Below, in pieces: positions 953 through 58,981 of a stretch of DNA of 64,000 bases. Positions within the stretch are counted from its first letter, which is position 1. Each line of letters opens with the position of its first letter. Made by a program: the position numbers and the translations under genes. The stretch comes from Planctomycetota bacterium (GTDB lineage Bacteria > Planctomycetota > B15-G4 > JADJEK01): NCBI GenBank assembly GCA_044225365.1, contig JBGAIQ010000009.1, positions 96,462 through 160,461 on the forward strand. Direction: 5' to 3'. The notes below the pieces were generated by a model, which did no database searches, had not been told where the DNA came from, and saw nothing but the letters and a program-made list of their open reading frames with translations.

Positions 953-3900
953 TCAGTGTCCTTGCTTCGTCCGAGTGTGTCGGCACTCGCAAGGGCTCTC
1001 GGCCATGTCGAGGAACCCCGCCAAACGGTCCGCATGTTCCTTGATGTCGTTCATTGCCTTCTGCATCGTCGGATGCTCGATGGATGTCGCAGGAATCGGT
1101 TTACCGTCTCGGCCGGGCGCTGTCGGTCCGGTCAAGGAATAACCATCTCCAATGACGGTGACCCGGGTCAGCTTTGGATCCGATGTATCCGGCACGTCGT
1201 GCGTCGGCTGACTCAGCATTCCATTGTGGACGACATCCGCCCACAGCATGATCGTGACGCTGCCGAACTGGTACTGATTCCAGATCTCGTTGATGATTCG
1301 CTTCCTCTGCAGTTCCCATTTCTCCTTCGCGTCGACATACGCCGCCATCGAATCATGCGTCATGAACGACTTGATTCCAGCGAGCGAGTTGAGCGCGTTT
1401 TGTAGGAAACGCTCCACGAAGGAGTACAAGAGCACGGCGTGGACCATTTCGTGGAAGTAGGCGGACTCCGTGATTCCTTTTCCAACCACTCTCAGCGTCT
1501 TATCAGGAGCCATGACGCTGGAATTCAGGGCTGCGATCTGCACCTTGATGCTGAAATCGGAATCTCCCGAGTGGGAGGTCCTCGCGTGATCCGTCTCGGC
1601 CGGATAGCACGGCGGATCCATCACGGGATTCACGTAGACGTACTTCTCGGAGTAGATGTCCACGCTGTCGAGCTCGGTGACGCCAAAGACCAGGCCTCCC
1701 AGCGCCTCCGAGAAGGCGACGCCAGCCAACTTCGGTCGCTGGATCTCACCGAGCACCCGACCGACCGTGCATAGGCCACTAGGATCGACGAAATCGACCG
1801 GATCGTCGCCGACCCGGCTGTATTCCTTCTGGAGCGAGCTGGCGCGAATCGGATCCGGCTCCACGAACCGGCAATCCTCCGGATCGTACATCCGAGCGCC
1901 GTTCCAGTAGATCCCGTGGTTCGCGTCCCAGCGCATGCCCTGGAACCGGTCGACGTTCCACGTCGCGCCGCTCGTTCCGAGCGAGCCCCCGAAGGGATAG
2001 TACTCGAACCCCGCGGTCGCGAGCGTCGACTCGTCGAGCGTGCGCACCACGCTGCCCGTGATCGGATCGGCGAGCACGACGTGATCGACGCCGGATCGCT
2101 CGGACCAGATCTTCTGATCGATGCCGGTACCGAAATCCTCCTCCTCGAGTACCCAGTTGTTGTAGGAAAGAACGGGCTCGCCGTTGGGATCGAGCGTGAA
2201 GTAACGAATCGTCGAGCCCGTCACGGCACCGAGGATCGAGCCGAACGGATCGCGATAGAACTGGGTGGTGACGGCGCCGGTCGTGAGGGTCGCGATGCGG
2301 CCCCAGGCATCGTAGGTGTAGGTGCGAGTCGAAGCGCCGTTCGATCGCGAGGTCACGCGGCCCGCTGCGTCGTACGCGTACGTCGTCGTTGCGCTACCCT
2401 TCTGTGCCGTGATCAGGCGACTCGCCTGGTCGTAGCCAAAGGTCGTCGTCACGCCGGACTGCGTGGAAGTCGCGATGCGGCCGGCGGCGTCGTAAGTCAG
2501 GCTGGAGGTATACGCATTCGGTCCGGTTCGCTTGCTCGACGCCAGCGCACCGAACGATGTGTAGGTGAACGTCTCGCTGTCGCCCGCCGCGTGATCGATT
2601 TGCGAGACGCGATCTTCGCCATTGTATTTGTAAACGCGGTGCACCAGCGTCGTGCTCGATCGCGCGGCCGAGTAGTCGTTCAGTCGACCGCATCCGTCGA
2701 ATGCGAATCTCTCGTCGACGAGGCCGCGGATCCTTCGAAGCACGATGCGACCGATCGAATCGTACGTAAAGCTCGTCATCGGTTCGGTGATGCTTCCCCG
2801 TACGAGGTCGATCGATGAGATTCGACTCATCGAATCGTAGGAATACGAGAATGCATCGCCGTTCGGAACGACTCGCGCGATGAGGCGCCCTGTCGAATCG
2901 TAGTAATACGAGAACACCTCCCCGAATCCATTGGAGAACGACGTGACCCGCCCCGACGCGTCGTAAGCGTACTGATACCAGGTCGTGCCTTCCTGGATCG
3001 CGGCGAGGCGATCGTGCGCGTCGTACGTGTAACTGCGCGTCGCACCACCGATGCTCGAGCTGGATTGCGTGAGCTTGCCCGAGGCGTCGTAGGCGAAGGA
3101 ATACGTGACACCACCGGGCTCGGTCTGACTCGTGAGTCGACCGTTCGCATCATGCGTGAGGGTGAACGTCTGCGTACCGTGGACGACCGTAGCGAGGTTG
3201 CCGAGCGCGTCGTAGGAATACGACCACGCGAGATCACCGCCGTTCTTCTTGTACGTGAGGCGGCCGAGGGAGTCGTACGCGTACGTCACGGCCGGCGCGC
3301 CGTCGGGGGTCGACGTGAGGGGCTGACCCGCGAGATTGTAGGTATACGAACACCCATACCCCGTCGGATGGACCATGCGCGAAAGTCGGCCGTTCACGTC
3401 GTACGAGTAGGTCGTCGTCAGCACGGTGCTCGTCGACTGGGCAACGGGGTATTTCTTCACGGATACGAGCCGACCGCCCGAATCGTAGGTCTGGTCGATC
3501 CGAATCTCGCTCGAGGTCCCCGGAGCGAGTTTCGATACGGTGAGTCGACCGACGACGTCGTAGGCGAAGGTCGCCACCAGCACGCCGTTCTGCCGGACTT
3601 CCGTGCAGCGCCCCGCCGCATCCCGCGTGTAGGTCGTGGTCACACCGCCGCAGGTCGTGGACACGAGATCCGTGTAGAGGAATTGCGACGTGCTCGGCAT
3701 GGACCCCGAGGCGGCGTGCGACGTCTCGAGCCCTGCGAGGTTGTAGGCGCGTTGCAGTACGACGGCGGGATCGGAGTCGTTCGCGAGGCCATCGCTGTTC
3801 GAATCGATCCAGGGGCCGGTCTCGGTGACGGGGCGGCCCAGCGCATCGCGAGCGACCACGGTCGTCCGACCTCCCGAATCCACCGCGCGCGTGAGTCGGT

Positions 3901-4978
3901 CGGCGGCATCGTAGTCGTAGGTCGCCGTGCCGAGACCGAAGTACGTGTGCGACGTCTCCTGGTTCCGCGCTCCGAACGCGACCGACTCCTGCGGAGTCAT
4001 CGCGCCATCGAAAGTGGTCGCCTGGCGATTCAGCGCGTCGAACTGCGCCGCCTCGAGCACCGACGTCTGGTTCGCGATCATGGTCTGAACGCCGGCGAGC
4101 GAGGCGGCGGGACCATGGCGCGAAACGACGTTGCCCGACGCGTCGTAGCGGTTGCCGATCCACGTGACATTGCTCGACGTCGTGCGGATTCCCTGCGCTT
4201 CGATCCGTCCGGCGGAGTCGTACGACGTGAATTCGCTGCCGAGCGCGGTCGAGACTCCCGGGCGCGTGACTTTGATCACGCGATGCTGCGAATCGTAGTC
4301 GAAGTACGTGACGAGACCGTTGGGATCGGTCTCCGAGATCTTGTCGTGCGTCGCGTTGTAGGACCGGAACGTGATCGCGCCGGCCTCATTGCGGATCTGG
4401 ACCAGGTCGCCGTTCGAGTCGTAAGTGAATTGGCGATATTGACCCGCGGTGATCATCGCCTGAACGTCGGTCTGCGTGAACGCGGGTCCCGCGCTCTGGA
4501 TCACGCGCCCCATCGAATCGAGCGTGTCGAGGGTGATGCCCCCGCGGAAATCGGTCGTCATCGTCCGATTGCCCGCGAGATACGCGAAGGTCCAGGTGTA
4601 CGTCTCGGTGCCATTCGTCGCGGTCCGTGACGCGAGGCGACCCATCGAATCGTAGGTGTACGACTCGGTCAGCGCCCCGCCCTGGCGACTGTGGCTCGTC
4701 ACTCGGTACTGCGCATCCCACGTCCAGTTCTCGATCTGCCCACCGGGATGCGTCGCCTGCTGCAGGAGCGAGTAGCCGCCGGAATACGTGTACGTGTAGT
4801 TGTGCGTCTGAGCGGCGAGTTCCGCCGGATTCGGCACCGGACCGTACACCGGTCCACGGTGCTGGGTCACGTTGCCGAAGGCGTCGTACTGGAAGTCCTC
4901 GTAGAGTGATTGGGCGCTGGCAATTCCCGCCAGCGACATGGCTGCGGCGAAGAGCGAGACGGGGAGACGGAGCGACAT
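953..4978 (-). CDS. Rhs repeat protein (1341 aa): Sec signal peptide, RHS core, C-terminal HExxH metallopeptidase-like polymorphic toxin domain
   Basis: N-terminus MSLRLPVSLFAAAMSLAGIASAQS is signal-like. Dozens of YD repeats (YTYDAHDRL, YAYDASGRV, FAYDGCGRL...). RHS core end signature GARMYDPEDCRFVEPDPI, then the DPSGL autoproteolysis-type motif. The ~350-aa variable tail contains AYFHEMVHAV (HExxH). Confidence 0.9.
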   Translation of the reverse strand: MSLRLPVSLFAAAMSLAGIASAQSLYEDFQYDAFGNVTQHRGPVYGPVPNPAELAAQTHNYTYTYSGGYSLLQQATHPGGQIENWTWDAQYRVTSHSRQGGALTESYTYDSMGRLASRTATNGTETYTWTFAYLAGNRTMTTDFRGGITLDTLDSMGRVIQSAGPAFTQTDVQAMITAGQYRQFTYDSNGDLVQIRNEAGAITFRSYNATHDKISETDPNGLVTYFDYDSQHRVIKVTRPGVSTALGSEFTSYDSAGRIEAQGIRTTSSNVTWIGNRYDASGNVVSRHGPAASLAGVQTMIANQTSVLEAAQFDALNRQATTFDGAMTPQESVAFGARNQETSHTYFGLGTATYDYDAADRLTRAVDSGGRTTVVARDALGRPVTETGPWIDSNSDGLANDSDPAVVLQRAYNLAGLETSHAASGSMPSTSQFLYTDLVSTTCGGVTTTYTRDAAGRCTEVRQNGVLVATFAYDVVGRLTVSKLAPGTSSEIRIDQTYDSGGRLVSVKKYPVAQSTSTVLTTTYSYDVNGRLSRMVHPTGYGCSYTYNLAGQPLTSTPDGAPAVTYAYDSLGRLTYKKNGGDLAWSYSYDALGNLATVVHGTQTFTLTHDANGRLTSQTEPGGVTYSFAYDASGKLTQSSSSIGGATRSYTYDAHDRLAAIQEGTTWYQYAYDASGRVTSFSNGFGEVFSYYYDSTGRLIARVVPNGDAFSYSYDSMSRISSIDLVRGSITEPMTSFTYDSIGRIVLRRIRGLVDERFAFDGCGRLNDYSAARSSTTLVHRVYKYNGEDRVSQIDHAAGDSETFTYTSFGALASSKRTGPNAYTSSLTYDAAGRIATSTQSGVTTTFGYDQASRLITAQKGSATTTYAYDAAGRVTSRSNGASTRTYTYDAWGRIATLTTGAVTTQFYRDPFGSILGAVTGSTIRYFTLDPNGEPVLSYNNWVLEEEDFGTGIDQKIWSERSGVDHVVLADPITGSVVRTLDESTLATAGFEYYPFGGSLGTSGATWNVDRFQGMRWDANHGIYWNGARMYDPEDCRFVEPDPIRASSLQKEYSRVGDDPVDFVDPSGLCTVGRVLGEIQRPKLAGVAFSEALGGLVFGVTELDSVDIYSEKYVYVNPVMDPPCYPAETDHARTSHSGDSDFSIKVQIAALNSSVMAPDKTLRVVGKGITESAYFHEMVHAVLLYSFVERFLQNALNSLAGIKSFMTHDSMAAYVDAKEKWELQRKRIINEIWNQYQFGSVTIMLWADVVHNGMLSQPTHDVPDTSDPKLTRVTVIGDGYSLTGPTAPGRDGKPIPATSIEHPTMQKAMNDIKEHADRLAGFLDMAESPCECRHTRTKQGH

Positions 4979-5096
4979 CGGGAATCCTCGAAGCGGTGGC
5001 GATGGTCGGGACCACCTGGGACGAGCGAGGATGCCGCGGCGACGTCACGCGGGATTCACGACTTTTTTTCCGTCCGTGGACGCCGCGGCGAACCGA

Positions 5097-8000
5097 TCAG
5101 GAGCGAAGAACGCGATCGGCCTCGCGCACGACGGCTGCGTTGAACAGATCGCTGGTCAGGAACGCCTCGCGCCGCTGGGCGTCCTCGATTCCCGTACTGC
5201 GCTCGAGCACGAGGTCGCGTGCCCGCACGAGGAACTCGCGAGCCTCGTCCTCACGATCGATCGCCTTCAGGCAGCGATAGTGGATGAACGACAGCTCGGC
5301 CTGGCGCTTCCTCGCGGCCTGGTGCGTCTCCAGGAACTTCATGCCCTTCTTGCTGACGGCGAGGGCGAACTTGGACTTGCCCTGCGCGAGGTAGGCGACG
5401 GCGAGCGCGGCGTAGGCGTAGGCCTCCTGTCGCGCAAGCTCGTACTTCTGCGCGATCGCCACGCCCGAGGCGGCATACGTCGCGGCGACGGCGGGGTCGC
5501 GCTCCGGATTCTGATTCGCGATGAAGAGGAGGGCGAGGGCGACGTGCGTGTACACCTCGAACGGCGCATCCGAGGTCATCTTGAACAGATCGAGCGCGCG
5601 TTCGAGGCGGGCCCTTGCTTCGGCATGGCGACGCGCTCGCATCGCGAGTTCGCCAGAGACGTACAGCGCGCGAGCCTTCAACGCCTGATCGGAGTTGGCC
5701 TCGGCGATCGTGAGCGCCGCGTCCGCGGACTTCTCGGCGCGTTCGAGGTCGCCGAGCTCGCGATAGGTCCTTGCGAGCTGAAAGAACGCGCGGCCCCGAC
5801 CGCGTTGATCCTCGAGTCGCTCGAAGAGCGCGAGGGCCTGCTTCTGCGTCTCGAGGGCGAGCTCGAGACGATCCGTCGCGAGATAGAGCTGGCCGAAGAT
5901 GAGGAAGCCGTAGGCGCGTCCCAGCTCGTCCCCCGCCGCAGCGGCGAGTTCGTCGGCACGCTTCAATTCGTCGTCATAATCGGTCTGACCGAGCGTCTCG
6001 AGCACGGCGGCCTCGACGCGGAGCGAGCGCGCCTCGAGCGCGAGATCACCCGCACGTCGCGCCGCCTCGCGCGAACGCTCGCAATGCTGCAGCGCCGCGA
6101 ACACGCGGCCGGTGGACGAGTCGTACGCAGCGAGTTCGACCTCGACCTGCGCGATGCGTCGATCGTCGTTGGCCGTGAGCGCTACGCGGGCGGCGGAGCG
6201 CAGCAATTCGCCCTGCCGCGCGCGCTGTCCCAGATGACCGTAGACCGAAGCCGCGCCGAGGAAGAGGGCCACGCGATCCGAGGCGACGATCGTGGCATCG
6301 TCGTCGGAAACCTGCGACAGGTGGTCGAGCGCCTTGTCGGCGAGCCGCTGCGCTCGCTCGTGGAGGTTGCGGTCCTCGCAGAAGTCCACGGCACCGATCA
6401 GATACCTGGCGGCGCGCGAGTGCGCCTCCGCGAAGGAGAAGTGGATGCCGGCTTCGTAGTTCGCGCGCGTCGCGGCGTGCGGGTCGGTGGACGACCGCGC
6501 GTGGATCTGCGCGACCGTCAGGTGATATTCGCGACGCAGGGCGGGATCGATCCCGAGGTACACCCGTTCACGCAGCAAGTGATGATCGAAGCGGTAGGCG
6601 TCGTCGAACGATCGAACGAGGTGATAGCGCTGGGTCAGTCGCGAGAGAACCTCGGAGGCCTTGAGGAGGTCGAGCCCGAGTCCCTCGATGACCGGCTCGG
6701 GTTTGAATCGCGCGCCGAACACCGACGCGAATTCGAGGAAGCGCTTCGCTTCGGCATCGATGTCCTCGAGCCTTCGCGCGAGCAGGTCGAGCACCGATTT
6801 CGGCAACGGCAGGCGCTTCAGCTCGGCGGGCTTGATCGAGCGCAGCTTGCCGCGCCGTTCCAGGTCGTCGATCAGCGCGAACAGGAAGCCGGGATTGCCT
6901 TCGCTCGCTTCGTGGAGGCGCTTGCCGAGAGATTTCAGGAGCGCCGGCGGAACGCCGACGTCCCGCAGCACGGAGCGGACGGCGGTGTCGTCGAGCCGCT
7001 CGAGCGTGACGTGGAGCGCTTCCTTCAGCTCGAACAGCTTCTTGAAGAACGGCGCCGACGGCGGCTCGCCCGGCATCGTCTCGGCGAGTGCGCTCTCGCG
7101 GGCCGTGAGCACGATGGCGATCGGGAACACCGCGAGCGTCGAGGCGAGTGCGAGCAAGGCGCGGAGCGAACCGCGATCGGCCCACTGGATCTCCTCGATC
7201 ACGAGGAAGATCGGCGAGCGCACCGACAGCGTGCGCAGGACCTCCGCGTACAGCGCGGGGACGGCTTCCGGCGGCAGTTGCTTCGCTGCCGAAGAACCGG
7301 CGAGCGCGCTCGCGCCCGGCGCATTCGTCCCGCCGGATGCGACGCCCGCGCCGCCTTCACCGAGAACGAGGGAAGCGAAAGCGTCGGCGAAGACGCGGCG
7401 CTCGGGCAGGTTCTCGCGCAACTTCTCGGCGAGCACGCGCGTGCGATCGGCGCGCGGGACCGCGTCGACGCCGAGGGCCATCAGCAGCGCCTCGTTCAGT
7501 GCGTAGTACGGCGTCGCTGCCGCTTGATCGAGGAAGCGCGAGACGAGGACCTGCGCGCCGAGCGGCTCGATCTCCTCGGACTCGAGTGCGCTATCGATGA
7601 GGCGCGATTTGCCGATCCCGGTCTCGCCGGTGACGACGACGACCCGTCCGCTCCGCGCGACGGCGGCCGTGCGCAATGCGTCGACGAGCGCGCCGCGCGC
7701 GGCGTCCCGTCCGTAGACCCGAGTCGCACGACGCACGCGCAATCGTCGCCGCGAACGCGACAGGTGCGCCTCCATGGCTTCGCCCTCGACGTAGGCCTTC
7801 CACCAGTCCGATTCCTCGCGTTCCTCGAGGATGCGAAGGAGGCGCGATGCCGGCTGGAGACGCCGCGCCGGGTCTTTCTCGAGCGCCTGCGCGACCACCC
7901 GCTCGAAGAAGTACGAAACGTCGGGCGCGAACGCCGAGACGGGACGCGGGACGAGCCTCGTCTGATTCGCCATCGTCGACGGCAGATCGGGACCGTGGAA

Positions 8001-8664
8001 CGGATTGAATCCCGTGAGGCACTCGTAGGCGGTGACGCCGAGCGAGTAGAGGTCGGTCGCCTTGCCGATCGGCCCGCTCGCGATCTGCTCGGGCGACGAA
8101 TACGCGGCGCTGCCGACGAACGTGCCGGGCAGCGAGATCTCCGTCCCCGGCTCCACGAGCCGCGAGAGTCCGAGATCGACGATGTGGAGATGGTCCTCGG
8201 CGTCGAGGAACAGGTTCCCGGGTTTGATGTCCCGGTGCAGGATGTCGTGCTCGTGGAGCGCCGCGAGCGCCGCGACGCCCTGTCGATAGACGTGGAACGC
8301 TCGGCTCTCGCTCATCCTCCCGTCGTCGTCGAGGACCTTCGAGAGCGTGCGCCCTCGCAGATACTCCATGACGATGAAGTGGAGCGTCTCGCCGCCCACC
8401 TTCTCGCTGCCGACGTCGTAGGTCGCGACCACGTTCTCGTGCTTGATCGCGAGGCCGACCCCGGCTTCGCGTTTGAATCGCCGGAGGATGTCCTCGTCGG
8501 CCGCGAGGTGCGGATGCAGGATCTTGAGCGCGACCTCGACGCCCACGCGCAGACCCTTCTTCGCCTTCACCACCTCGGCGAGGAAGACCGTTCCCATGCC
8601 GCCCGCGCCAAGGCGCTTGACGACGCGGTAGTTCTTGATGGTCTTGCCCTCGAGATCGTTCACG
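5097..8664 (-). CDS. Ser/Thr protein kinase fused to AAA/STAND-type NTPase and TPR repeats
   Basis: Kinase motifs LGAGGMGTVFLAEV, VALKIL, HRDIKPGNLFL, DLGLS, SPEQ. Walker A VVVVTGETGIGKSRL follows, then long TPR-like helical repeats. The track ORF starts at 8762, which is only 13 bp from the divergent cysS start. An in-frame GTG at 8664 (VNDLEGKTIKNYRVV, just before the G-loop) is the more likely start; the true start is uncertain between 8664 and 8762. Confidence 0.85.
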
Positions 8665-8775
8665 CACGTACTTTCGTTGTCAGGATCGAAGCTGGCGATT
8701 ATAGTCCGTGGCAGCGTAGGGCAAGCGTAAGCGATTGCGAGCGCGCTTTTAACGCACAGCAAACGGCAAAACCCA

Positions 8776-10203
8776 GTGATCCGCTTCTACAACACACTTT
8801 CGCGTCAGATCGAGGAGTTCGTCCCGCAGGAGAAGGGCAAGGTCCGCATGTACAACTGCGGCCCGACCGTCTACTCCAACCCCCACATCGGGAACTACCG
8901 CGCCTATGCGTTCTGCGATCTCCTGCGCCGCGTGCTCGAGATGGCGGGTTACTCCGTCACCCAGATCATGAACATCACGGACGTCGGGCACCTGCGCGAC
9001 GAGCGCAACGACGCCGGCGACGACCGGATGGAAGCGGCCGCGCGCGCGGAGCGGGTCGATCCGCAAACGATCGCGAAGCGCTACACCGATGAGTTCTTCG
9101 CCGGTCTCGAACTGCTCGGCATTCGCCGAGCGCACGAGCATCCGCGCGCTTCCGACAACGTGAAGCAGATGATCGAGATCATCGAATCGTTGATCGCGAA
9201 GGGCTTCGCCTACGTCGTCGATCACGAGGTCTACTTCGACGTGCCGAAGTTCCACGGCTACGGCAAGCTCTCCGGCAACGTCGGCGAAGAGGTCGAAGCC
9301 GGCGCTGGCGAGCGCGTCGCCGCCTCGGTCCTCGCGAAGAAACACGACAAGCGCGACTTCGCGCTGTGGAAGCACGATCCCGCGCATCTCCAGCAATGGG
9401 ATTCACCGTGGGGCCGCGGATTCCCGGGCTGGCACATCGAATGCTCGGCGATGGCGCGCCGCTATCTCGGCGACACGCTCGACATCCACACCGGCGGCAT
9501 CGACAACATGTTCCCGCACCACGAGTGCGAGATCGCGCAGAGCGAGGCATTCACGGGCAAGCCGTTCGTGCGCTACTGGCTCCACGCGGCGCACCTCGTG
9601 CTCGAAGGCGAGAAGATGTCGAAGTCGCTCGGCAACGTCCTGTTGCCGAGCGACCTCGTGAAGGACGGCGTGCCGGCGCGCGCGATCCGGTTCTACTTGC
9701 AGTCGGTGCACTACCGGCAGCCGATGAACTTCACGCGCGAAGAGTTGAAAGCGAAGTCCGCCGCGCTCGAGCGACTCCTCAACTTCTACGACGACATGCG
9801 GCATCGCGAGAAGAGCGGGAGCGACGCGCCGGTCACGGATTCGTTCCGCGCGCTCGTCGACACGGCCGCCGCACGCTTCCGCGATTGCCTCTACGACGAC
9901 CTCAATTCGTCCGGCGCGCTCGGTGCGATCTTCGAGATGATGAACGCCGTGAACGCGGCGTCGCCCGGAAAGGTCGGCGCCGCCCTCGTCACGAAGTTCC
10001 TGCGCGAGGCCGACTCGATCCTCGGCGTGCTGCCAATGGACACGCTCGATCTCGAATCGGAGATCGAAGCGAAGATCGCGCAGCGCGAAGCGGCGCGGAA
10101 GGCTCGCGATTTCAAGCTCTCCGACTCGATCCGCGACGAACTGCTCGCGCGCGGCATCACGCTGCTCGACACACCGCAAGGCGTGCGTTGGCGCAAATCT
10201 TGA
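8776..10203 (+). CDS. cysS: cysteine--tRNA ligase
   Basis: Class I aaRS motifs HIGN ([17 protein letters not shown]) and KMSKS. Zn-binding region HIECSAM...[15 protein letters not shown]. Full-length, ~475 aa, GTG start. Confidence 0.95.
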
Positions 10204-10215
10204 GCGTCGTGCGCC

Positions 10216-11007
10216 TCACGGCGCGCGGCGTCTCAGCTCCGACTCGAACGCGGCGCGGTGACTTCGACTGAGCGTCACCTGTTCGCCCGATGAGAGTTCG
10301 ATGCGAGCATCGCCCGCCGGCATCTTGGTGATCGTGACCACCGCGCCAACGCGGACGAGCGCCGAACGGTGCACGCGGACGAATCCAGAGGCGGCGAGCT
10401 CGCGTTCGGCTTGCGCGAGCGTCCGTCGCTCGAGGAGCGCTTCTCCCTTGCGATGCACCATCACGTAGTTCGAACGAGCCTCGATCCACTCGATCTCTTC
10501 GAGCGGGACGAGCACGATTCGACCGCGTTGCCGCACGATGAAGTTCGTTCGCCTGCGCGTCGCGGTCGCGTCGACGAGACGCTTCAGGTCCTGCTCGCGC
10601 GAGTGCGCTTCGTCACCGCCATCGCCGAACGCCGGTAGGGCACGCTTTGCGCGATCGAGCGCTCGCAGGAGTCGCTCACGATCGAACGGCTTCAGCAGGT
10701 AATCGAGCGCGTGGACGTCGAACGCCTTGAGCGCGTACCGATCGTACGCCGTCACGAAGATCACGACAGGAGGAGTGCCCTCGATTCGCGACAGCACCTC
10801 GAATCCATCGATTCCGGGCATCTGGACGTCCAGCAGTACCAGGTCCGGTCGTCTTTCCTCGATCCACTCCAGTGCCTCGATCCCGTCCTTTGCCTCCCCC
10901 ACGAGCTCGAATTCGGGCAGCGTCGCCAGGTCGTCGACGAGTCCGCGGCGTGCGATCGGCTCGTCCTCCGCGATGAGCACGGTGATGCGACGCCGCGCCG
11001 TCGTCAT
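10216..11007 (-). CDS. LytTR-family two-component response regulator
   Basis: Receiver domain (VLIAEDEPIARRGL...LLDVQMPGIDGFEVL...VIFVTAY) plus C-terminal LytTR DNA-binding domain (IVLVPLEEIEWIEARSNYVMVHRKGE...VHRSALVRV). The track ORF 10216..12099 carries a spurious Arg-rich N-terminal extension. Real start is MTTARRRITV at 11007, overlapping the HK stop in an ATGA junction. Confidence 0.9.
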   Translation of the reverse strand: MTTARRRITVLIAEDEPIARRGLVDDLATLPEFELVGEAKDGIEALEWIEERRPDLVLLDVQMPGIDGFEVLSRIEGTPPVVIFVTAYDRYALKAFDVHALDYLLKPFDRERLLRALDRAKRALPAFGDGGDEAHSREQDLKRLVDATATRRRTNFIVRQRGRIVLVPLEEIEWIEARSNYVMVHRKGEALLERRTLAQAERELAASGFVRVHRSALVRVGAVVTITKMPAGDARIELSSGEQVTLSRSHRAAFESELRRRAP

Positions 11008-12083
11008 TCGCTCGTGCCTTCTTCGATTTGGGCGAATGGGATCTTGAGGCGCACGCTCGCGCCGCCCCCCTGCCGACGCTCGAGCGTCAATTCCCCGGCT
11101 GTGCCATAGAGCGCGTCGATCCGCCGCCGCGTATTGCCGATTCCGATGCCTTCGACGAGATCGGCCGCCGCGGGCGGATCCTCGCCGTCGTCGTCCACGC
11201 CGAGAGTCAACCGATCGCCGTCGCGGCGCGCCCGTATCTCGATCCGCCGAGTTCCAGGACAGCGCTCGATGCCGTGGCGGATCGCGTTCTCGACGAGCGG
11301 GAGCAACGCCTGACTCGGAACGCGTGCGCCTCGCACGCCGGCCTCGATGTCGACGTCGATCACGATGCGATCGCCGAACCGGATCTTCTGGATCTCGAGG
11401 TAGGGATCGAGGCGCGCCACTTCGTGCTCGAGCGCGACCTCCTGCGTGTCTCGTTCGTCGAGATGCGATCGCAGGAGGTCGCCGAGGAGCGTCGTCATCC
11501 TCGTCGCGGACGTGGGATCGGTTCGCGCCGCGATGCCGACGGCATGCAATGTGTTGAACAGGAAGTGCGGTTCGAGCTGGCTCTTCAGCGCGGAGAGGCG
11601 GGCCGCGATCAGGTCGGTTCGCATGCGCTCGGCGAGCACGGCTTCGCGACGCTCCCTCCGCCGATGCGCAGCGAGCAAGGCGACGCCGACGATGGCGAGG
11701 GCATGCAGGCTCGTGAACGGGATCGATCGCCCGAGGTGATCGAGCGCCCCTTCGACGAGCGGCGTCTCGTCGAGGCGTTGCGGCGCGACGAAGCCGTACG
11801 CGATGAGCGTCCGCTGCACCCCGAACGAAGCGAGCGTGAAGAGCGTCGCGACCGCGCCGACGAGGAGCGCGACGAGCACGCTCCTCATGGGTTCCGTGAC
11901 CCGCAGGACGCGCGCGGAGACGTGGAACACGAACGGCGTCAGCGGCGCGAAGGGCAACCATTGCGTCGCCGTCGAGGTGGCGATCCCGGGCCAGATCGGT
12001 GCGTCGGGGGTCCAGAACGCATGCTCGTGGAGGAAGAGCAGGGAACCGAATGCGCAGAAGAACGCGAACGAGCCGATCCACAT
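11004..12083 (-). CDS. LytS/YehU-type sensor histidine kinase (multi-TM, His_kinase + HATPase_c)
   Basis: Four predicted TM helices (WIGSFAFFCAFGSLLFL etc.). His_kinase motif LEPHFLFNTLHAVGI and HATPase motif LPLVENAIRHG. The track ORF start (12758) adds an Arg-rich junk N-terminus. Likely start is MWIGSF near 12083 (+/- a few nt). Translationally coupled to the LytTR regulator. Confidence 0.85.
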   Translation of the reverse strand: MWIGSFAFFCAFGSLLFLHEHAFWTPDAPIWPGIATSTATQWLPFAPLTPFVFHVSARVLRVTEPMRSVLVALLVGAVATLFTLASFGVQRTLIAYGFVAPQRLDETPLVEGALDHLGRSIPFTSLHALAIVGVALLAAHRRRERREAVLAERMRTDLIAARLSALKSQLEPHFLFNTLHAVGIAARTDPTSATRMTTLLGDLLRSHLDERDTQEVALEHEVARLDPYLEIQKIRFGDRIVIDVDIEAGVRGARVPSQALLPLVENAIRHGIERCPGTRRIEIRARRDGDRLTLGVDDDGEDPPAAADLVEGIGIGNTRRRIDALYGTAGELTLERRQGGGASVRLKIPFAQIEEGTSE

Positions 12084-12208
12084 GCTCAGCCTCCGCCACG
12101 AAGCCGGATCCTCGGCAGCGGGTTCACCCGGCTCGATCTCACTCACAAGACGCACTCGGCTCGACAATCGACCCCTCACGACTCCTGTGTTCGCATTCGA
12201 TCCGGCGA

Positions 12209-13402
12209 TCAGCGCGCGCCCGTCGGACCCGATTTCGAAGCGCTCCGCACCGAGTTCGCCGGCGACTCCGAGCCCGACGCCGGCGGCCAAGGATACTCCA
12301 TCCCGCGGGCGGTCCTCTCGGCGACGTCCTTTCCGAGATCGCGCTCGACGAGATGGAGCGCCGCGTCGATCCCTGCGGAAACGCCCGCCGCGGTCACCAC
12401 CTTGCCATGGTCGACGTAGCGAACGCCCCTCACCACGTCCACCTTCGGGAAGTCGCGGGCGAGTCCGCCAAGAGCCGAGTGATGCGTCGTCGCCGACTTG
12501 CCGTCGAGCAGGCCGGTCTTCGCGAGCACGAAGGCGCCGGTGCACACGGAGAGGATCTGCGTCGAGGGCGTCGCGGCGGCCGCGAACCACTTCATGAAAG
12601 CCGTGTCTTCGAGGAGTCGTGGCGTATCGCCACCCGGCACGACGATCACGTCGGGAACGGGGCAGTTCTCGATCGTGTACGTCGGGACGATCGTCGCGTC
12701 GATTCCGTTTGGATGCACGGGAGTCGACGTCGAAGCCACGTAGAAGACCTGGTAGCACGGACCCTCGATGCGCCGGATCGCCGCTCCGAAGACTTCGGAC
12801 GGACCCGCGAAGTCGAGCATCTCGACGCCCTCGTGGATCACGATCGCCACCTTCGACGCATGACTCACGATCGAATCCATGGCGCGCTCGAAGCGCGGGT
12901 CGGCGCGCAGCTTCTTCAGGTCGGGATCATGACGGATGAGTCCCTCATTGCCGAGGCCCGCTGCGATCGCGCGCGAGAGACTCTCGAACGCGACGTCCGA
13001 TCGATCGAGCATCGCCTGCGCGCAGGCGATGTCGTACAGACTGAGGACGTGGACTTCGTGTTGCGATGGAGTCGCCGCATTCTCGGTGAGTTTCGCCGCG
13101 CGTTCGTGCGCGGGGAGCGCGTCGGTGAACCGCCCGAGTGAATGCAATGCGAACCCCAGGCGATGCCAGGCGACGGCATCGTCGTCGTGCGACGCGACGA
13201 GTCGCTGATAGGCCTCGGCAGCGGCCACCCAGTCGCCGGCATCGAAGGCCTGCGACGCTCGTTGCGCGAGATTCTCGTCCGCGGGTTTCGCCGCCTCACC
13301 GACGCCCGTCGGCGCGCTCCCTTGCGCATGGGCAGTACCGACGGCAAGCATGAGAATCGCGGGAATCAGCGCAAATCGGGTCCGTTCGAAATCCATGACC
13401 AT
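12209..13402 (-). CDS. exported TPR-repeat protein fused to a DJ-1/PfpI (class I glutamine amidotransferase-like) domain
   Basis: Real start MVMDFERTRFALIPAILMLAVGTAHAQG is a signal peptide. TPR-like helices (AEAYQRLVASHDDDAVAWHRLGFALHSLGRFTDAL). DJ-1/PfpI domain with nucleophile elbow ILSVCTGAFVLAKTGLLDGKSATTHH. The track ORF (to 14020) has a junk N-terminal extension. Confidence 0.8.
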   Translation of the reverse strand: MVMDFERTRFALIPAILMLAVGTAHAQGSAPTGVGEAAKPADENLAQRASQAFDAGDWVAAAEAYQRLVASHDDDAVAWHRLGFALHSLGRFTDALPAHERAAKLTENAATPSQHEVHVLSLYDIACAQAMLDRSDVAFESLSRAIAAGLGNEGLIRHDPDLKKLRADPRFERAMDSIVSHASKVAIVIHEGVEMLDFAGPSEVFGAAIRRIEGPCYQVFYVASTSTPVHPNGIDATIVPTYTIENCPVPDVIVVPGGDTPRLLEDTAFMKWFAAAATPSTQILSVCTGAFVLAKTGLLDGKSATTHHSALGGLARDFPKVDVVRGVRYVDHGKVVTAAGVSAGIDAALHLVERDLGKDVAERTARGMEYPWPPASGSESPANSVRSASKSGPTGAR

Positions 13403-13696
13403 CCTCTCGTATTCGAGCTCGCTTCGTCTTTGGGCGGCAGGGCGCGCTCGGCCAGCTCGATGACCGGCGCGCCTTGAATGGAACCGAGGCCAACGCCGGA
13501 TGCGTCCCTGCTGGGACCAACCGTTCTCTCCTTGTCGCGAGGGACGGCCGACGGGTCGATCTCGGGCGATTTCTCCCAAGTGCGCAGAATTTGGCGGAGC
13601 GACGGCGCCCGACTCCACCGTTTTGCCCACTGCTCGCGCCGATTCGTGCGGCACCTCGTTCGCTCTTCGAGCGAGCGAGCTTTCCGGAGGTGTTCC

Positions 13697-14509
13697 ATGC
13701 GTGTGATCGACATCATGACGAAGAACTGCGTCACCATCGAGCCGATGGCGTCGCTGAAGCAGGCGATGGACGAGATGGAACGGCACGACGTGCGACATCT
13801 CGTCGTCGTCGACGCGGATGGACGGCTCGAGGGCATCGTCTCCGATCGCGATCTGCTCGCGGCGACGGGATGGGTCGATGATCCGACCGATTCCCGGCGT
13901 GTCATGGATGTGATGCATCGCGACGTGAAGACGACGAATCGCCAGGCGGAGGTCGTCGCGATCGCGACCGAGATGATCGTCGATGCGATCGGCTGCTTCC
14001 CGGTCGTCGAGGACGACCACGTCGTCGGCATCGTCACGGAGACCGATCTCGTCGGGGCGTTCCTGAAAGCGCTGGAGCAGGGCATCCTCCCCCGCGACGC
14101 GGATCCGTTGATCGCGACGAAGATGACGCGCGATCCGCTCTGCATCTCACCCTCGGATACCTTGCTGGAAGCGCGACTCATCCTGCGAGCGCGCAAGATC
14201 CGCCATCTCCCAGTGATCGACGGGGATCGCGTGCTCGGCGTGCTGTCCGACCGCGATACGCGGCGCGTCGAAGGACGCCATCAACTTCGCGAGCCGGTGC
14301 TCGCGGAAGCGATCAAGCGTCACGTCGTCATCATCGCTCCCGATCAACGCCTCTCGACCGCCGCCGTGCTGATGTTGGATCGCAAGATCAGCTGCCTGCC
14401 CGTGGTCACGCCGGACACGAACAAGCTCGTCGGCATCCTGACCCTCGCCGATCTGCTCGACCATTGCGCCGCGACGCTCTGGCAACCGACGAGATTCGTG
14501 ACGGCGTAA
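13697..14509 (+). CDS. CBS-domain protein (four tandem CBS motifs)
   Basis: Repeated CBS signatures (VIDIMTKNCVTIEP, RHLVVVDADGRLEGIVSDRDLL, CFPVVEDDHVVGIVTETDLV, RHLPVIDGDRVLGVLSDRD, CLPVVTPDTNKLVGILTLADLL). ATG at 13697 after the upstream junk portion of track ORF 13478..14509. Confidence 0.85.
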   Translation: MRVIDIMTKNCVTIEPMASLKQAMDEMERHDVRHLVVVDADGRLEGIVSDRDLLAATGWVDDPTDSRRVMDVMHRDVKTTNRQAEVVAIATEMIVDAIGCFPVVEDDHVVGIVTETDLVGAFLKALEQGILPRDADPLIATKMTRDPLCISPSDTLLEARLILRARKIRHLPVIDGDRVLGVLSDRDTRRVEGRHQLREPVLAEAIKRHVVIIAPDQRLSTAAVLMLDRKISCLPVVTPDTNKLVGILTLADLLDHCAATLWQPTRFVTA

Positions 14510-20523: not shown

Positions 20524-22506
20524 ATGACTGCCCGTTCCAAGCTGTTTCTCGGCCGCGTGGCGCTCGCGGTGTTCGGCCTCGGCACGCTGGGCCCGAGCCC
20601 ACGGGCAGCCGCTCGACAGCACGAAACAGAAACGCCCGTTCCCCCGCCAGCCCAGAAGCCGACGACCCCGGGCCAGGAAAATCCTCGCCGCGCATCCCGA
20701 GACGCGACGATCGAAAGCTTGATCTTCGGACCGAGCGGACTCGTGTCCGATGGCCCCCCCGGTGCCGCGGCCGTCGCGCTCGAAGAGGCTCTCACGGCGA
20801 GCGCACACCGCCTGCGGGCGATCACCGAAGCCTGCCCCCGCCCGCTCGGGGCGATCGGTCTCGACTTCGCGAGGGCTGCAGCGACCCGTCTCGACCCCAC
20901 TGCGCGACGCATCGCGACGGAACTTGCGGCGCGGGTGACTCCCTCCGACGCCGAGGACTGGCTGCTCGCGGGAGTCTCTCCCTGGCCTCCCGACGCGGGC
21001 GCCGCGACTCCCGTTCCGAGTCTGCCGCTCCCCGTGACGGACGTCCTCGACGCACTCGGTCGCGTCGGCAGCGAACACTCGAGCCACGCGATCGCCCGCT
21101 TCCTCGCCGCGAAGGACCCGCAGGTCGCGTACGCGGCGAAGAGCGCCGCCCTGCGCATCACGCCGCGCCTGCTCGCCCTCGGAAAGTCCGAGGAGGCCGC
21201 GCTCGCGCTGCGCGCCTTCGTCACCGGCGATCCGCGCGATCTCGTCCTGCGCGAGAATCTCGCCGTCGTGCTCGGCGTCTACCTCGAGCAGCCCGACGAG
21301 GGCCGCGCCGTCCTCGCGGCGTACCCCGAGACGGACGCGAGCCGCGGCCCGCTTTCGCACGACTTCGCCGAACTCGAAGTCGCACGCGCGATGATCGATT
21401 TCTTCGAAGGAGCGTCGGAGGGTGAACGCCACGCACTCGAACGACTGACGAGCGCCCGCGCGCGCGTGCTCGCCGCTCCGCCAGCGGTGGAAGCCGCGGC
21501 CGAGACTTTCGTGCGCGTCGAACTGTGTCGCGCGATCGTCCTGCTCGCGCAAGCGCAGCCCGATGTCGAAGCCGCCGCAAGAGCGATCGCGCTCGCCGTG
21601 GAGCACGCACCGCACGAGAACTCGCGCTACCGCTGCGACGACGCGCTCCATGGGCCGGCAGGACCGCGTGCCTGGCTCGAACGATTGCGGCGAATCGGTC
21701 GCCCCGAGATCCGTCGCGCGTTCTATCACGCGATGGCGAAGGCCGCGCACGCCGCGGATCCCGCCGCTTCTCCCGACGCCGAGATCCCGGCGCGCAGTTG
21801 GTCCGCGCTCTTCGCCGCGTCCGCCGCTCTCGACGACGGCGATCTCGACAGCGCGATCGAGAACGCGAGCGAACTCATCACGCGGATGCAGGGCTCGTCG
21901 GCGTGGTACGACCGCACGATGCTCGGAGAGGCCGAGTACGTGAAGGGAATGGCAACGCTCTTCCGGGGCGATGCGAAGGCAGCGTCCACGCTGCTCGAAT
22001 CCGCCTTCGCGCGGATCGAGGAGCTCGCGCGCGAGGAGGTCGACTCGTGGGCGCAGGACCGCATCGAACGCAACGCGCTCGTCGAAGCGGGCGCGGCGCC
22101 GATGCGCACGTCGCTCGCCTCGACCGAGGCGAGGATGGCACGCAGCGTCGTCGAAGCGGCGCTCGCGGCGAAGGATCGCAAGACGGCCCTGCGCTACGCC
22201 GCCGCCGCGGTCGCGGCCGATCCTTTCGATGACGCGTCGGTCGCACTCGAACTCGCCCTCGCCACGCCTGCCGAATCGAACCCGCGCGGCACGCGGGAGC
22301 GCGGCATGCGCGCCCTTTCGACCTTGCCCCGGTCGTCGGGGACGCTGCTCGATCTCGCTCGGCTCGCTGTCGCGCTGGGGGATGCGAGAGACGCTCAGAC
22401 GCTCTTCGAGCGACACGTCGAATGGAATGCCCTCACGCCTGCGCGCAAGGCGATCGAAGAGGGCCGCCGCGCCCGCGACCCTCTGCTCGCCACGATCGGG
22501 CGCTGA
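20524..22506 (+). CDS. hypothetical exported Ala-rich helical protein (~660 aa)
   Basis: Signal peptide [30 protein letters not shown] at ATG 20524. Long low-Arg Ala/Leu/Glu-rich helical sequence, preferred over the Arg-rich antisense ORF 20140..22698. No identifiable catalytic motif. Confidence 0.6.
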
Positions 22507-22582
22507 GCTGCGGAAAACGCGACGAGTGGCGCGGGCGAACCGTCGCGGGATAGAATGCGCGGTCGTTCCCAGGAGCCGAGAC

Positions 22583-22789
22583 GTGAAGATTCGAATCGTC
22601 CTCAACGGACGCGTAAGAGAGATCGACGACACGACGACGATCGCGCAGCTCCTGCTCACCCTCGAGCAGAAGCCCGCGCTGCTCGCGGTCGAGCGCAATC
22701 AGCGCATCGTGCCGAAGGCGCTCCATGCGACGACCTGCCTCGCCGATGGCGACCAGATCGAGATCGTCACGTTCGTGGGCGGAGGCTGA
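22583..22789 (+). CDS. thiS: sulfur-carrier protein ThiS
   Basis: 68-aa protein [24 protein letters not shown]...[10 protein letters not shown] ending in the diagnostic Gly-Gly. GTG start. 1 bp before thiG. Confidence 0.85.
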
Positions 22790-22790
22790 G

Positions 22791-23606
22791 ATGACGACGC
22801 AGGACGCAGCGACCGAATTCGCGATCGAACCGCTCGTGGTCGGTCCGTACACGATGAAGTCTCGACTCATCGTCGGCACCGGGAAGTACCGAGATTTCGA
22901 ACAGATGGAGCAGGCGATCGAGGCGTCGGGCGCCGATTGCGTGACCGTGGCGCTGCGCCGCGTCGACCTCTCCCAGAAGGAGACGATCCTCGATCATCTC
23001 GATCGGAAGAAGATCGTCCTCTTGCCGAACACCGCGGGCTGCTACACGGTCGAGGACGCGCTGCGCATCTCCCGCCTCGCGCGCGAGATGCTCGACACCA
23101 CGCTCGTGAAACTCGAAGTGATCGCAGACCCGGTGACGCTCCTGCCCGATCCCATCGCGACGCTCGAAGCCACCGCGGTGCTCGTGAAGGAAGGCTTCAC
23201 GGTGATGGCGTACACCAGCGACGATCCCGTGCTCGCGCGGCGGCTCGAGGCCGCGGGCGCGGCCGCCGTGATGCCGCTCGGATCCGCGATCGGTTCGGGG
23301 ATGGGCATTCTCAATCGCCACAACATTCGCCTGATCCGCGACACTTTGAAGTGCCCGGTGATCGTCGATGCCGGAGTGGGCACGGCGTCGGACGTGACGG
23401 TCGCGTTCGAACTCGGCGTCGCCGGTGTGCTGTTGAACACCGCGATCGCGCACGCGCAGGATCCCGTCCGCATGGCGCGGGCGATGCGGCTCGCGACCGA
23501 AGCCGGCATCCAGGCCTTCCGCGCAGGACGCATGCCGGCGAAGGCGTACGCGAGTCCGTCGTCGCCGACCGAGGGTCTCATCACGGGCGGGAGCAAGACG
23601 GCGTGA
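22791..23606 (+). CDS. thiG: thiazole synthase
   Basis: ThiG hallmarks [50 protein letters not shown]. Confidence 0.95.
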
Positions 23607-24457
23607 CGGGCGTGGAAGACGAACTCGATTCCGGGGCCGCGGCGGATCTCGACGCGAAGGAAGCGCGACTGCGTAGAGCGGTGCGGGAGCTCGAAGGCGG
23701 CGTCGTCGTCGCGTTCTCTGGCGGCGTCGATTCGGCGCTCCTGCTCCTCGTCTGCGCGGACGAGCTGAAGGGCCGGGTGCTCGCGGTCACCGCCGAGTCG
23801 CCGTCGTTCCCGCAGCAGGATCGCCGCGACGCCGCACTCGTCGCGAAGCAGCTCGAGGTCGCTCACGTCAGCGTCTCGACGCACGAGATGAACGATCCGC
23901 AGTACGTCCAGAACGACGCCTCGCGCTGCTACTTCTGCAAGCACTCGTTGTTCGAGACCCTAGAGCCGATCGCGCGCTCCTCCGGCCTTCGCCATCTCGC
24001 GTTCGGCGCCAACCTCGACGACGAAGGCGATTATCGACCGGGCCATCGCGCCGCGGCGGAGTTCGCCGTCAAGGCGCCGCTGCTCGATGCGGGATTGCGA
24101 AAGGCCGACGTCCGCGCGCTCGCGAAGAAGCTCGGACTCTCGATCTGGAACAAGCCCGGCTCGGCGTGCCTCGCCTCGCGGATCCCCTACGGAACGGCGA
24201 TCGATCCCGCCGTCCTGGCGCGCGTCGACGCCGCGGAGAATGCGCTGCGGGAGCTCGGATTCCCGCAACTGCGCGTGCGGCATCATGGCGACGTCGCGCG
24301 TCTCGAGCTCGATCCAAGCGACATCGCGCGTGCGGCGGAATCGCGCGAGGCGATCCACGCGGTGTTGCGCGCACAGGGCTGGCGCTATGCGACGCTCGAT
24401 CTGCTCGGCTATCGCACGGGCAGTCTCAACGAAGCGCTGCCGCGACGCGAGACCTGA
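23603..24457 (+). CDS. PP-loop ATP pyrophosphatase (TIGR00268/LarE-like adenine-nucleotide alpha-hydrolase)
   Basis: SGGVDS PP-loop ([14 protein letters not shown]). Conserved CYFCK cysteine pair and C-terminal [12 protein letters not shown] motif. GTG start overlapping the thiG stop (GTGA). Confidence 0.8.
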
Positions 24458-24481
24458 ACGATCGGCGACCCGCGTCGCCCA

Positions 24482-25765
24482 TCAGCCGCGGGTGCGGCGC
24501 AGGACGTCCGCGAGCGAGCGTGCCGAACGATAGCCGACGAGCTTCTCGACGATGCTTCCGTCCTTGTCGATGAAGACCATCGTCGGCACGATGGCCGCGT
24601 TGTGCCGCGCGGCGAGCGCGCGTTCGAGCGCCGGATTCAGTCGCACGCAGACGAAACGAGACCGCAAGAGCTCCGACACTTCGGCGTCCTGCAGAGTTCG
24701 CTGATCGAGATCACGCGCGATCTTCGACCAATCGGCGGTATAGAGCACGCAGAGCGTCTTCTTGTCCCTCTTCGCGAGCTCCTCGCCCTTGCCGATGTCG
24801 GTGAGCCATTCCACCGGCTTGTCGGTGCGGGGGCGCGGTGGCTCGAGCTGGAGCGGGTCGGAGTCGAGCAAGGCCTGCTGCGCGGAATCGACGCTCTCCT
24901 CGCCGACGTCGACCCGCCGCGCCTCCGGCATGAGACTCGTGATTCGATACGGAATGCCGCCGAACTGGATCGGAACGGTGCATGGAACGAGTTCGAGGCC
25001 CTGCGGGAGTGGCGCGCCTGGCGCGAGTTCGATCAGTGCCCAGCGTGCCGAGCCGACGGCGTACATCGCCGTACCGCTGTCGTCATAGAGCACGACCCGC
25101 GCGTCCTTGCCGAGCAGCTTCGCGGTTCCTTCGCGCCAGTTCGCATCGATCACGAAGAGCTTCGTCATCTCCGACGGATCGTTGGAGCGCGGGAGCCAGG
25201 AATAGAACGTGAATCGGCACGCGTCCTCGATCCGGTCCGAACCGCCGGACGTCTCAACCCTCGCGCCGAAGTAGACGGTGACGGGGACCGCGGTGAATTC
25301 GACGTAGTCGGTCTCGCGCTGCGGATCCTTCACGACGACACCCTTCACGGGCTCTTGTTCATCGCTCCCGGAGAAGGATTGATCGCGATCGCGATCGATC
25401 CACAGCAGGTCGTAGCGATGCGTCGAGGGATTCGATTGGTCGAGGATGATCGTCTGGCGCCCACCGCGGCCGAAGCGCACGATTCCGTAGAGCGGCGTGT
25501 CGCACCGGAGCTGCGGGAGTTGCTTGATCTCGAGCATCGGTTTCTGAGCGAGCGCGATGGCGGTCGGCGAGCGCGAGACGAACGGACGCTCAGCCGGGTT
25601 CCCGGCCACGAGTTCGAGGGGGAACGACGTCTTCTTGACGAGGTTTCCGGCCGTGATGCCAACCTGGTTCGGATCGTCCTGCTGCGGGTCGGGTTGTTGG
25701 GCGAACGCGCGGCTGAAGCACAGCGCGCCGAAGGCCACGGCGAAGGCGAACGGGAAACGAAGCAT
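24482..25765 (-). CDS. exported protein with C-terminal thioredoxin-fold domain (no CxxC)
   Basis: Signal peptide MLRFPFAFAVAFGALCFSRAFAQQ. The C-terminal ~100 aa (KTLCVLYTADWSKIARD...IVPTMVFIDKDGSIVEKLVGY) resembles a thioredoxin-like fold lacking the second active-site Cys. The track ORF (to 26029) has a junk N-terminal extension. Confidence 0.7.
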   Translation of the reverse strand: MLRFPFAFAVAFGALCFSRAFAQQPDPQQDDPNQVGITAGNLVKKTSFPLELVAGNPAERPFVSRSPTAIALAQKPMLEIKQLPQLRCDTPLYGIVRFGRGGRQTIILDQSNPSTHRYDLLWIDRDRDQSFSGSDEQEPVKGVVVKDPQRETDYVEFTAVPVTVYFGARVETSGGSDRIEDACRFTFYSWLPRSNDPSEMTKLFVIDANWREGTAKLLGKDARVVLYDDSGTAMYAVGSARWALIELAPGAPLPQGLELVPCTVPIQFGGIPYRITSLMPEARRVDVGEESVDSAQQALLDSDPLQLEPPRPRTDKPVEWLTDIGKGEELAKRDKKTLCVLYTADWSKIARDLDQRTLQDAEVSELLRSRFVCVRLNPALERALAARHNAAIVPTMVFIDKDGSIVEKLVGYRSARSLADVLRRTRG

Positions 25766-58809: not shown

Positions 58810-58981
58810 TCTTCTGTGCTCCTGGGATTCTGGTGGGGCTTCCGGGAATCGAGTTTCGTGGCTTGGCGTGAACCGTGAACGACTCGGGGCAGGTTCGCGC
58901 TGGAGAGAGGCTTGACTCGACCGGAGAGTCTACGTCGCCGCAGCTCTTCGGTCAACGTGACGTGGTACGCGCGCAGCTCGC

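Follow-up and report, generated by a model that had tools for sequence, protein, structure and literature searches.

About 80% of the bacterial gene neighbourhoods of the sulfur-carrier protein ThiS have been reported to show coupling with ThiG, and only about 20% coupling with ThiF (Iyer, Burroughs, Aravind; PMC1779556). Another described system of relevance here is LarE, the PP-loop enzyme of the nickel-pincer cofactor family. The T. maritima LarE binds a [4Fe-4S] cluster through three cysteines in a CXXC...C arrangement (C92/C95/C172), in which the third Cys is shifted by one residue relative to C176 of the L. plantarum LarE (Chatterjee et al., PMC9283937), and it conserves S180/R212/R214 (L. 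plantarum numbering), the site proposed for the phosphate of the pyridinium mononucleotide substrate P2CMN (PMC9283937). The sulfur donor of this widespread [4Fe-4S] type of LarE has been shown only in vitro, with heterologous IscS. In this study, we analysed 64,000 nucleotides from a Planctomycetota bacterium (contig JBGAIQ010000009.1; hereafter the window, i.e., the whole stretch of DNA at its full length), in which a larE gene directly follows thiS and thiG. The explanation that we favour, and consider probable, is that this compact operon holds two canonical and separate sulfur-insertion branches that are co-expressed on a shared sulfur supply, with the E1 enzyme, LarB and LarC encoded elsewhere.

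The operon consists of three genes:
22583 to 22789, plus strand: thiS, GTG start to TGA stop, 68 amino acids, C-terminus VGGG
22791 to 23606, plus strand: thiG, ATG start to TGA stop, 271 amino acids
23603 to 24457, plus strand: larE (the PP-loop gene), GTG start to TGA stop, 284 amino acids

A single nucleotide separates the thiS stop codon from the thiG start, and the thiG stop overlaps the larE start by 4 nt (GTGA, 23603-23606). Each of the three genes is preceded by a Shine-Dalgarno-like motif, namely AGGAG at 22571-22575 for thiS (7 nt ahead of the GTG), GGAGG at 22781-22785 for thiG and GGAG at 23590-23593 for larE (9 nt upstream of the overlap). An earlier note on this DNA, made without database searches, had described thiS and thiG followed by a translationally coupled PP-loop gene with a GTGA overlap and the motifs SGGVDS and CYFCK, and all of these features were confirmed in the sequence.

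Both members of the thiazole pair have ordinary profiles. ThiS matched TIGR01683 with 74.6 bits, well above the cutoff of 37.45, and PF02597 with 62.8 bits; it ends in Gly-Gly and thiG adjoins it, as expected for a member of the ThiS family. ThiG gave a full-length match to PF05690 (348 bits) and carries the KLEV lysine motif (K107), and its best solved relatives were 1WV2 (E 9e-84), 1XM3 and 1TYG. We also considered whether this protein might be a paralogue of the thiosugar-synthase type recruited into another pathway and rejected this candidate, as the ThiG structures in PDB scored 220-284 bits versus 118 bits for the BexX-type 4N6E.

Judged from its sequence, the PP-loop protein is an orthodox tri-Cys [4Fe-4S]-type LarE of the nickel-pincer cofactor family. 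It matched TIGR00268 (LarE) with 312.1 bits (cutoff 150) over model positions 2-259 of 259, in agreement with the TIGR00268/LarE-like identity proposed before. SGGVDS corresponds to residues 39-44 and CYFCK to residues 109-113. When 39 homologues that share 46-72% identity with the window protein were aligned, 43 columns proved invariant, among them S39, G40, G41, D43 and S44 of the PP-loop (V42 being conserved in at least 90%) as well as C109, C112, K113, C189, S192, R193, R224 and R226. When aligned with the L. plantarum LarE (5UDQ; E 9e-50, 35-38% identity), positions W97, A100 and S177 of the latter become C109, C112 and C189 in the window protein, whereas its sacrificial C176 is occupied by Ala, with C189 falling one residue later. 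Because of this Ala and the three cluster cysteines, the window LarE is expected to be catalytic and not sacrificial. Residues S192/R224/R226 align with L. plantarum S180/R212/R214. An AlphaFold2 model of the protein had a predicted local distance difference test score (pLDDT) of 93.4 and a predicted template modelling score (pTM) of 0.89, and the top 50 PDB matches to this model found by Foldseek were all LarE (template modelling score, TM, 0.70-0.80).

Other families known from sulfur transfer were searched for as well. The PP-loop protein had no THUMP, rhodanese or ThiI family match in Pfam and NCBIfam, and no TtuA/TtcA/Ncs6 family match. The zinc fingers of TtuA are formed by CXXC pairs; we noticed no extra CXXC pairs in the window protein, although they were not searched for systematically. 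ThiF/MoeB E1 enzymes belong to a different fold class, and no PF00899 E1 match was obtained for the PP-loop protein or for any of the scanned open reading frames (ORFs) of the window, i.e., about 35 larger ORFs searched with Pfam or NCBIfam, a few short ones being left unscanned. The same scan detected no thiF/moeB, thiI, thiC, thiE, larA, larB or larC.

These properties bear on a ThiI-like role for LarE, in which a ThiF encoded elsewhere would adenylate ThiS, and the cluster sulfide of LarE, instead of a rhodanese persulfide, would attack the adenylated carrier (ThiS-AMP). Such a role would place LarE in the thiamine pathway and not in nickel-pincer cofactor synthesis. The PP-loop protein ThiI is required for formation of the ThiS thiocarboxylate (ThiS-COSH) in E. 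coli (summarised in PMC13325395). The operon context fits this idea as it fits the other readings, and the scanned window ORFs contain no thiI-like gene. However, E. coli ThiI serves ThiS via its rhodanese domain and not via its PP-loop. In addition, the ATP site and the P2CMN phosphate site would be superfluous for such a function, yet both are invariant, nor has the window protein diverged from genuine LarEs. We give this role next to no credence.

To place the operon in a comparative context, we retrieved LarE relatives from 80 genome loci and 7 metagenome loci, followed by nine further homologues. The protein search of metagenome contigs contributed 7 distant loci (45-56% identity), none of them from the clade described below. 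The window has a GC content of 65.8%, its nearest named relatives are Planctomycetota metagenome-assembled genomes (MAGs), and the identical LarE protein is on record from a 161-kb NCBI contig and from two Logan metagenome contigs. All nine distinct members of one uncultured Planctomycetota clade (the window, L003, L090, L091, L093, L095, L096, L097 and L098), whose LarEs are 56-100% identical to the window protein, have thiS-thiG directly upstream of larE. The thiG and larE genes overlap by 4 or 8 nt in eight of these nine; L097 has an 8-nt gap. In a neighbour-joining tree, the thiSG-linked LarEs formed a single clade without a long stem, nested beside LarEs that adjoin larB/larC (L011, L065). 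The surrounding region of about 25 kb is syntenic in the clade, including cysS, rbfA-DUF503-infB-nusA and the genes for thioredoxin-like, squalene-cyclase-like and DUF4175 proteins.

The earlier note had read the PP-loop gene as present instead of thiF/thiI. This part of its reading was not supported, as a thiS-thiG pair usually has no thiF beside it; with only about 20% of neighbourhoods placing ThiS next to ThiF, the operon does not lack a gene. It had further suggested a non-canonical route to the ThiS thiocarboxylate. Spelled out, LarE itself would adenylate the C-terminal glycine of ThiS and convert it to ThiS-COSH with the cluster sulfide, thereby replacing ThiF and the ThiI/IscS relay. 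If LarE did activate ThiS in this way, a planctomycete lineage would be able to make a sulfur-carrier thiocarboxylate without an E1. The chemistry from carboxylate through acyl-adenylate to thiocarboxylate formally fits the need of ThiS, and larE is translationally coupled to thiG; moreover, neither the scanned ORFs of the 64-kb window nor the flanking 10 kb on either side in its relatives yielded a thiF/moeB, and larB and larC are not nearby. On the other hand, S192/R224/R226, the counterparts of the P2CMN phosphate ligands, and all other family-invariant residues are kept. On the LarE model, the 312 bits of the window protein are on par with the scores of LarEs that neighbour larB/larC or nadA, with 308-349 bits obtained elsewhere (L018 308, L085 330, L047 349). 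The tree has no accelerated stem branch and nests the protein among larB/larC-linked LarEs, and the lack of thiF in cis is the norm (PMC1779556). On its sequence, the window LarE thus gives no sign of a divergence that would suggest a protein substrate. We know of no PP-loop enzyme that adenylates the C-terminus of a protein, and we consider activation of ThiS by LarE very improbable. As an outcome that would speak against its idea, the note had named placement of the PP-loop protein in a tRNA-modification clade unrelated to ThiS chemistry; this expectation proved half right, the protein falling not in a tRNA-modification clade but in the LarE family of the nickel-pincer cofactor.

Outside the clade, the neighbourhoods of larE are diverse. 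Apart from the ThiS-family gene of L085 described below, neither thiS nor thiG was present within 10 kb of larE in any of the 86 non-clade loci; larB (confirmed as NF033503) and/or larC (TIGR00299/NF052512) occurred in about 23 of the 86, usually immediately 3' of larE. Because only this minority has larB/larC nearby, most LarEs are orphans like the window LarE. Of 99 loci whose ORFs were all searched with a ThiS hidden Markov model, only those of the clade and L085 had a sulfur-carrier gene near larE, so adjacency of a sulfur carrier to larE is not general. ThiF-family genes were found within 10 kb in 7 of the 86 non-clade loci, compared with about one expected according to our own rough estimate based on typical gene frequencies, which is not a formal test.

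Sulfur-mobilisation genes adjoin larE in loci from several phyla. In two Chloroflexi MAGs (L018:9137-10834 and L048:9098-10777), a 281-amino-acid MoeB/ThiF-type E1 (PF00899, 277 bits) ends 13 nt before larE on the same strand, apparently forming an E1-larE operon. In Geosporobacter (L045), the gene order is larE, iscU and a ThiF-family gene; L037 has cysK, cysE, a ThiF-family gene, larE, mnmA and nifS together, and in a Phycisphaerae locus (L061) nifS lies beside larE. TcdA-like E1s are located near larE in L031 and L062. The metagenomic locus L085 (positions 9998-14405, GC 46%) combines within 4.4 kb larE, convergent thiE and thiM, a gene for a rhodanese-ThiF fusion and one for a 71-amino-acid ThiS-family protein that ends in Gly-Gly. 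With this thiamine-gene locus, LarE is found together with thiamine and sulfur-carrier genes for a second time, independently of the clade. In L085, as in L018 where larE adjoins the ThiF-family E1, LarE co-occurs with an E1 and does not replace it, a further argument against LarE as the activator of ThiS. Finally, in a Candidatus Brocadia MAG (L047:4558-10819), nadA (quinolinate synthase) and the start of larE share an overlap of 14 nt, and nadD and larC are located within 5 kb of larE, a cluster which ties LarE to nicotinate-nucleotide chemistry in Planctomycetota. With the Brocadia LarC as a query, only anammox proteins appeared among the 120 matches listed, which gave no link to the assemblies of the thiS-thiG-larE clade.

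As a separate observation on this last locus, genes for NaAD (nicotinic acid adenine dinucleotide) precursors thus form a cluster with those of the nickel-pincer cofactor in an anammox planctomycete.

According to the explanation that we favour, a ThiF/MoeB-type E1 and a persulfide source, both presumably encoded elsewhere in the genome, would carry out the adenylation and thiocarboxylation of ThiS, and ThiG would use ThiS-COSH to make the thiazole of thiamine. LarE would belong to the nickel-pincer cofactor branch, with P2CMN as its likely substrate and with LarB and LarC also expected elsewhere in the genome; it would not act as a replacement for ThiF or ThiI. Dependence of both branches on the same mobilised sulfur would be the reason for their co-transcription and translational coupling. 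Sulfur-mobilisation genes do recur next to larE in other loci, including those for E1 (L018, L048, L045, L085), IscU (L045), NifS (L037, L061) and CysK/CysE/MnmA (L037).

Several points weigh against this explanation. Nickel-pincer cofactor production by this lineage is putative. The genes larB, larC and larA are absent from the 64-kb window and from the ±10 kb surroundings of the nine clade members, and no thiF/moeB is found among the scanned window ORFs. Sharing of one sulfur supply offers a rationale for the co-expression and is not a test of it. Since the whole region of about 25 kb is syntenic, the conserved adjacency of thiS-thiG and larE represents one ancestral event and does not amount to independent functional evidence.

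A refinement of the two-branch explanation, which we put forward tentatively as a possible but doubtful one, is that the ThiS thiocarboxylate is the physiological sulfur donor of the window LarE. An E1 encoded elsewhere would charge ThiS, and the C-terminal thiocarboxylate might dock on the [4Fe-4S] cluster of LarE at its open iron. A non-core sulfide might then be left on the cluster and passed by LarE to adenylated P2CMN, similar to what is described for TtuB and TtuA. The coupling of the genes would be explained because one carrier would serve both ThiG and LarE. Biochemical data on T. maritima LarE offer a precedent: it is stated to work by a TtuA-like [4Fe-5S] mechanism, and TtuA obtains its sulfur from the TtuB thiocarboxylate; Na2S was no sulfur source for T. 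maritima LarE, heterologous IscS being the sole donor tested (PMC9283937). Comparative data are consistent with this refinement as well, including the translational coupling of thiS-thiG-larE in eight of nine clade members, the related arrangements in independent lineages (L085, L018, L048, L045) and the number of non-clade loci with a ThiF-family gene relative to our estimate. In a recent survey, LarE is also listed with sulfur-relay genes that cluster with Thi4/ThiS/ThiF (PMC13325395).

Nevertheless, other observations argue against ThiS as the donor. A ThiS-family gene near larE is limited to the clade and L085, most LarE loci have neither an E1 nor a sulfur-carrier neighbour, and two of the E1 neighbours are TcdA-like (L031, L062). 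No ThiS or ThiF fusion to LarE was found among the 150 closest LarE cluster representatives. The biochemistry on hand concerns IscS persulfide donation only, and our literature search found no paper that ties LarE to a sulfur-carrier donor. A supply of sulfur from ThiS-COSH to LarE, if real, would add nickel-pincer cofactor synthesis to the carrier-dependent pathways, alongside those of thiamine, molybdopterin and 2-thiouridine.

Fusions of other kinds were observed for LarE. Five independent 50%-identity cluster representatives (P0292, P0321, P0323, P0374 and P0390) have a full LarE domain fused to a C-terminal RNase H-like domain (PF13456/PF00075), for which no obvious rationale could be seen. 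Additional fusions are LarE-LarB (P0262), LarE-NUDIX (P0296) and dynamin-like GTPase-LarE (P0322).

The operon is flanked by the following features:
20524 to 22506, plus strand: upstream ORF of 660 amino acids (gene call)
22507 to 22582, plus strand: thiS leader of 76 nt
24464 to 24479, no strand assigned: hairpin GGCGAC-CCGC-GTCGCC (read from the sequence)
24482 to 25765, minus strand: convergent gene for a 427-amino-acid protein with a C-terminal thioredoxin-like domain (PF13098/PF13899)

Regarding the leader, the earlier statement that its 76 nt contain no TPP (thiamine pyrophosphate) riboswitch was borne out by an Rfam covariance scan of the window and leader. No Rfam family reached its gathering score anywhere in the 64-kb window, nothing TPP-like (RF00059) appeared at E ≤ 10 within 22200-22900, and no TPP riboswitch was detected in five syntenic relatives. 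The predicted fold of the leader was no stronger than that of shuffled sequences (z = +1.25), and an alignment of six relatives revealed no sequence conservation in it. The upstream 660-amino-acid protein has a signal-like N-terminal segment; TPR matches to it were only faint, and no Pfam or NCBIfam family was matched. A TPR-like gene of 621-685 amino acids directly precedes thiS in all nine clade members (e.g., L090, L091, L093, L095-L098), with a gap to thiS of 24-202 nt across the clade and no terminator-like site. Going by this arrangement, the 660-amino-acid gene may be the first gene of the thiS-thiG-larE transcription unit, in keeping with the co-transcription that the earlier note had considered.

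At the other end, the operon is delimited by the convergent thioredoxin-like gene, which most relatives have in a syntenic position. The 24-nt gap between this gene and larE contains the hairpin listed above, which is GC-rich and has a perfect 6-bp stem; as it has no T run, the consensus terminator scan did not report it.

Beyond the operon and its borders, a long same-strand block typical of Planctomycetota extends over 25830-47622 on the minus strand, and synteny of its first part extends to every clade relative. Its products are two alpha-toroid proteins similar to squalene cyclases/prenyltransferases, two DUF4175 proteins (about 800-980 amino acids), a PQQ-like beta-propeller protein of 1600 amino acids, a CLC channel that carries CBS domains and a BatA/VWA/DUF58/MoxR module. 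At the left end of the window (953-8786, minus strand), a gene for a 1363-amino-acid RHS-repeat/YD-shell protein is followed by one for a 1229-amino-acid Ser/Thr kinase-AAA_16-TPR protein. We also considered a class-V aminotransferase (58961-60271, plus strand) as a cysteine desulfurase partner and rejected it due to the presence of a kynureninase C-terminal domain (PF22580); this protein is more likely a kynureninase.

Among the described systems, a close counterpart of the window LarE is the T. maritima-type [4Fe-4S] enzyme (TIGR00268; Methanococcus-type homologue 8CNZ), with which it shares the SGGxDS motif, the three cysteines, the Ser/Arg/Arg site, the length and the fold. The genomic setting differs from that of T. 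maritima LarE, since the window larE is located directly behind thiS-thiG and coupled to thiG, with no larB/larC within 10 kb. The donor shown for the T. maritima enzyme is an IscS persulfide, whereas the operon partner of the window larE is a sulfur-carrier protein. The sacrificial LarE of L. plantarum (5UDQ) has a similar structure (Foldseek TM 0.72-0.80) and the same ATP and substrate-phosphate residues. Unlike that protein, the window LarE has Ala in place of the sacrificial Cys176 and possesses three cluster cysteines.

The 2-thiouridine systems TtuA-TtuB, Ncs6-Urm1 and NcsA-SAMP2, in which a ThiS/MoaD-fold carrier supplies sulfur through its C-terminal thiocarboxylate to a three-Cys [4Fe-4S] PP-loop enzyme, provide a model of how the operon might function. 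The likeness is mechanistic only: the window LarE does not belong to the TtuA family, its substrate would be a pyridinium mononucleotide versus tRNA, and its dependence on a carrier is hypothetical. With the canonical thiS-thiG(-thiF) module, the window shares a ThiS that ends in Gly-Gly beside ThiG, and its ThiG matches that of P. aeruginosa with 284 bits. It differs from the canonical module in that larE sits where thiF sits in some thiS-thiG operons and in that the 64 kb contain no TPP riboswitch and, among the scanned ORFs, no other thi genes. Taken together, thiS-thiG-larE is an unreported operon variant of known parts and does not overturn thiamine biochemistry. The value of the locus is that of a lead, as it points to a candidate for the physiological sulfur donor of the [4Fe-4S] type of LarE that can be tested.

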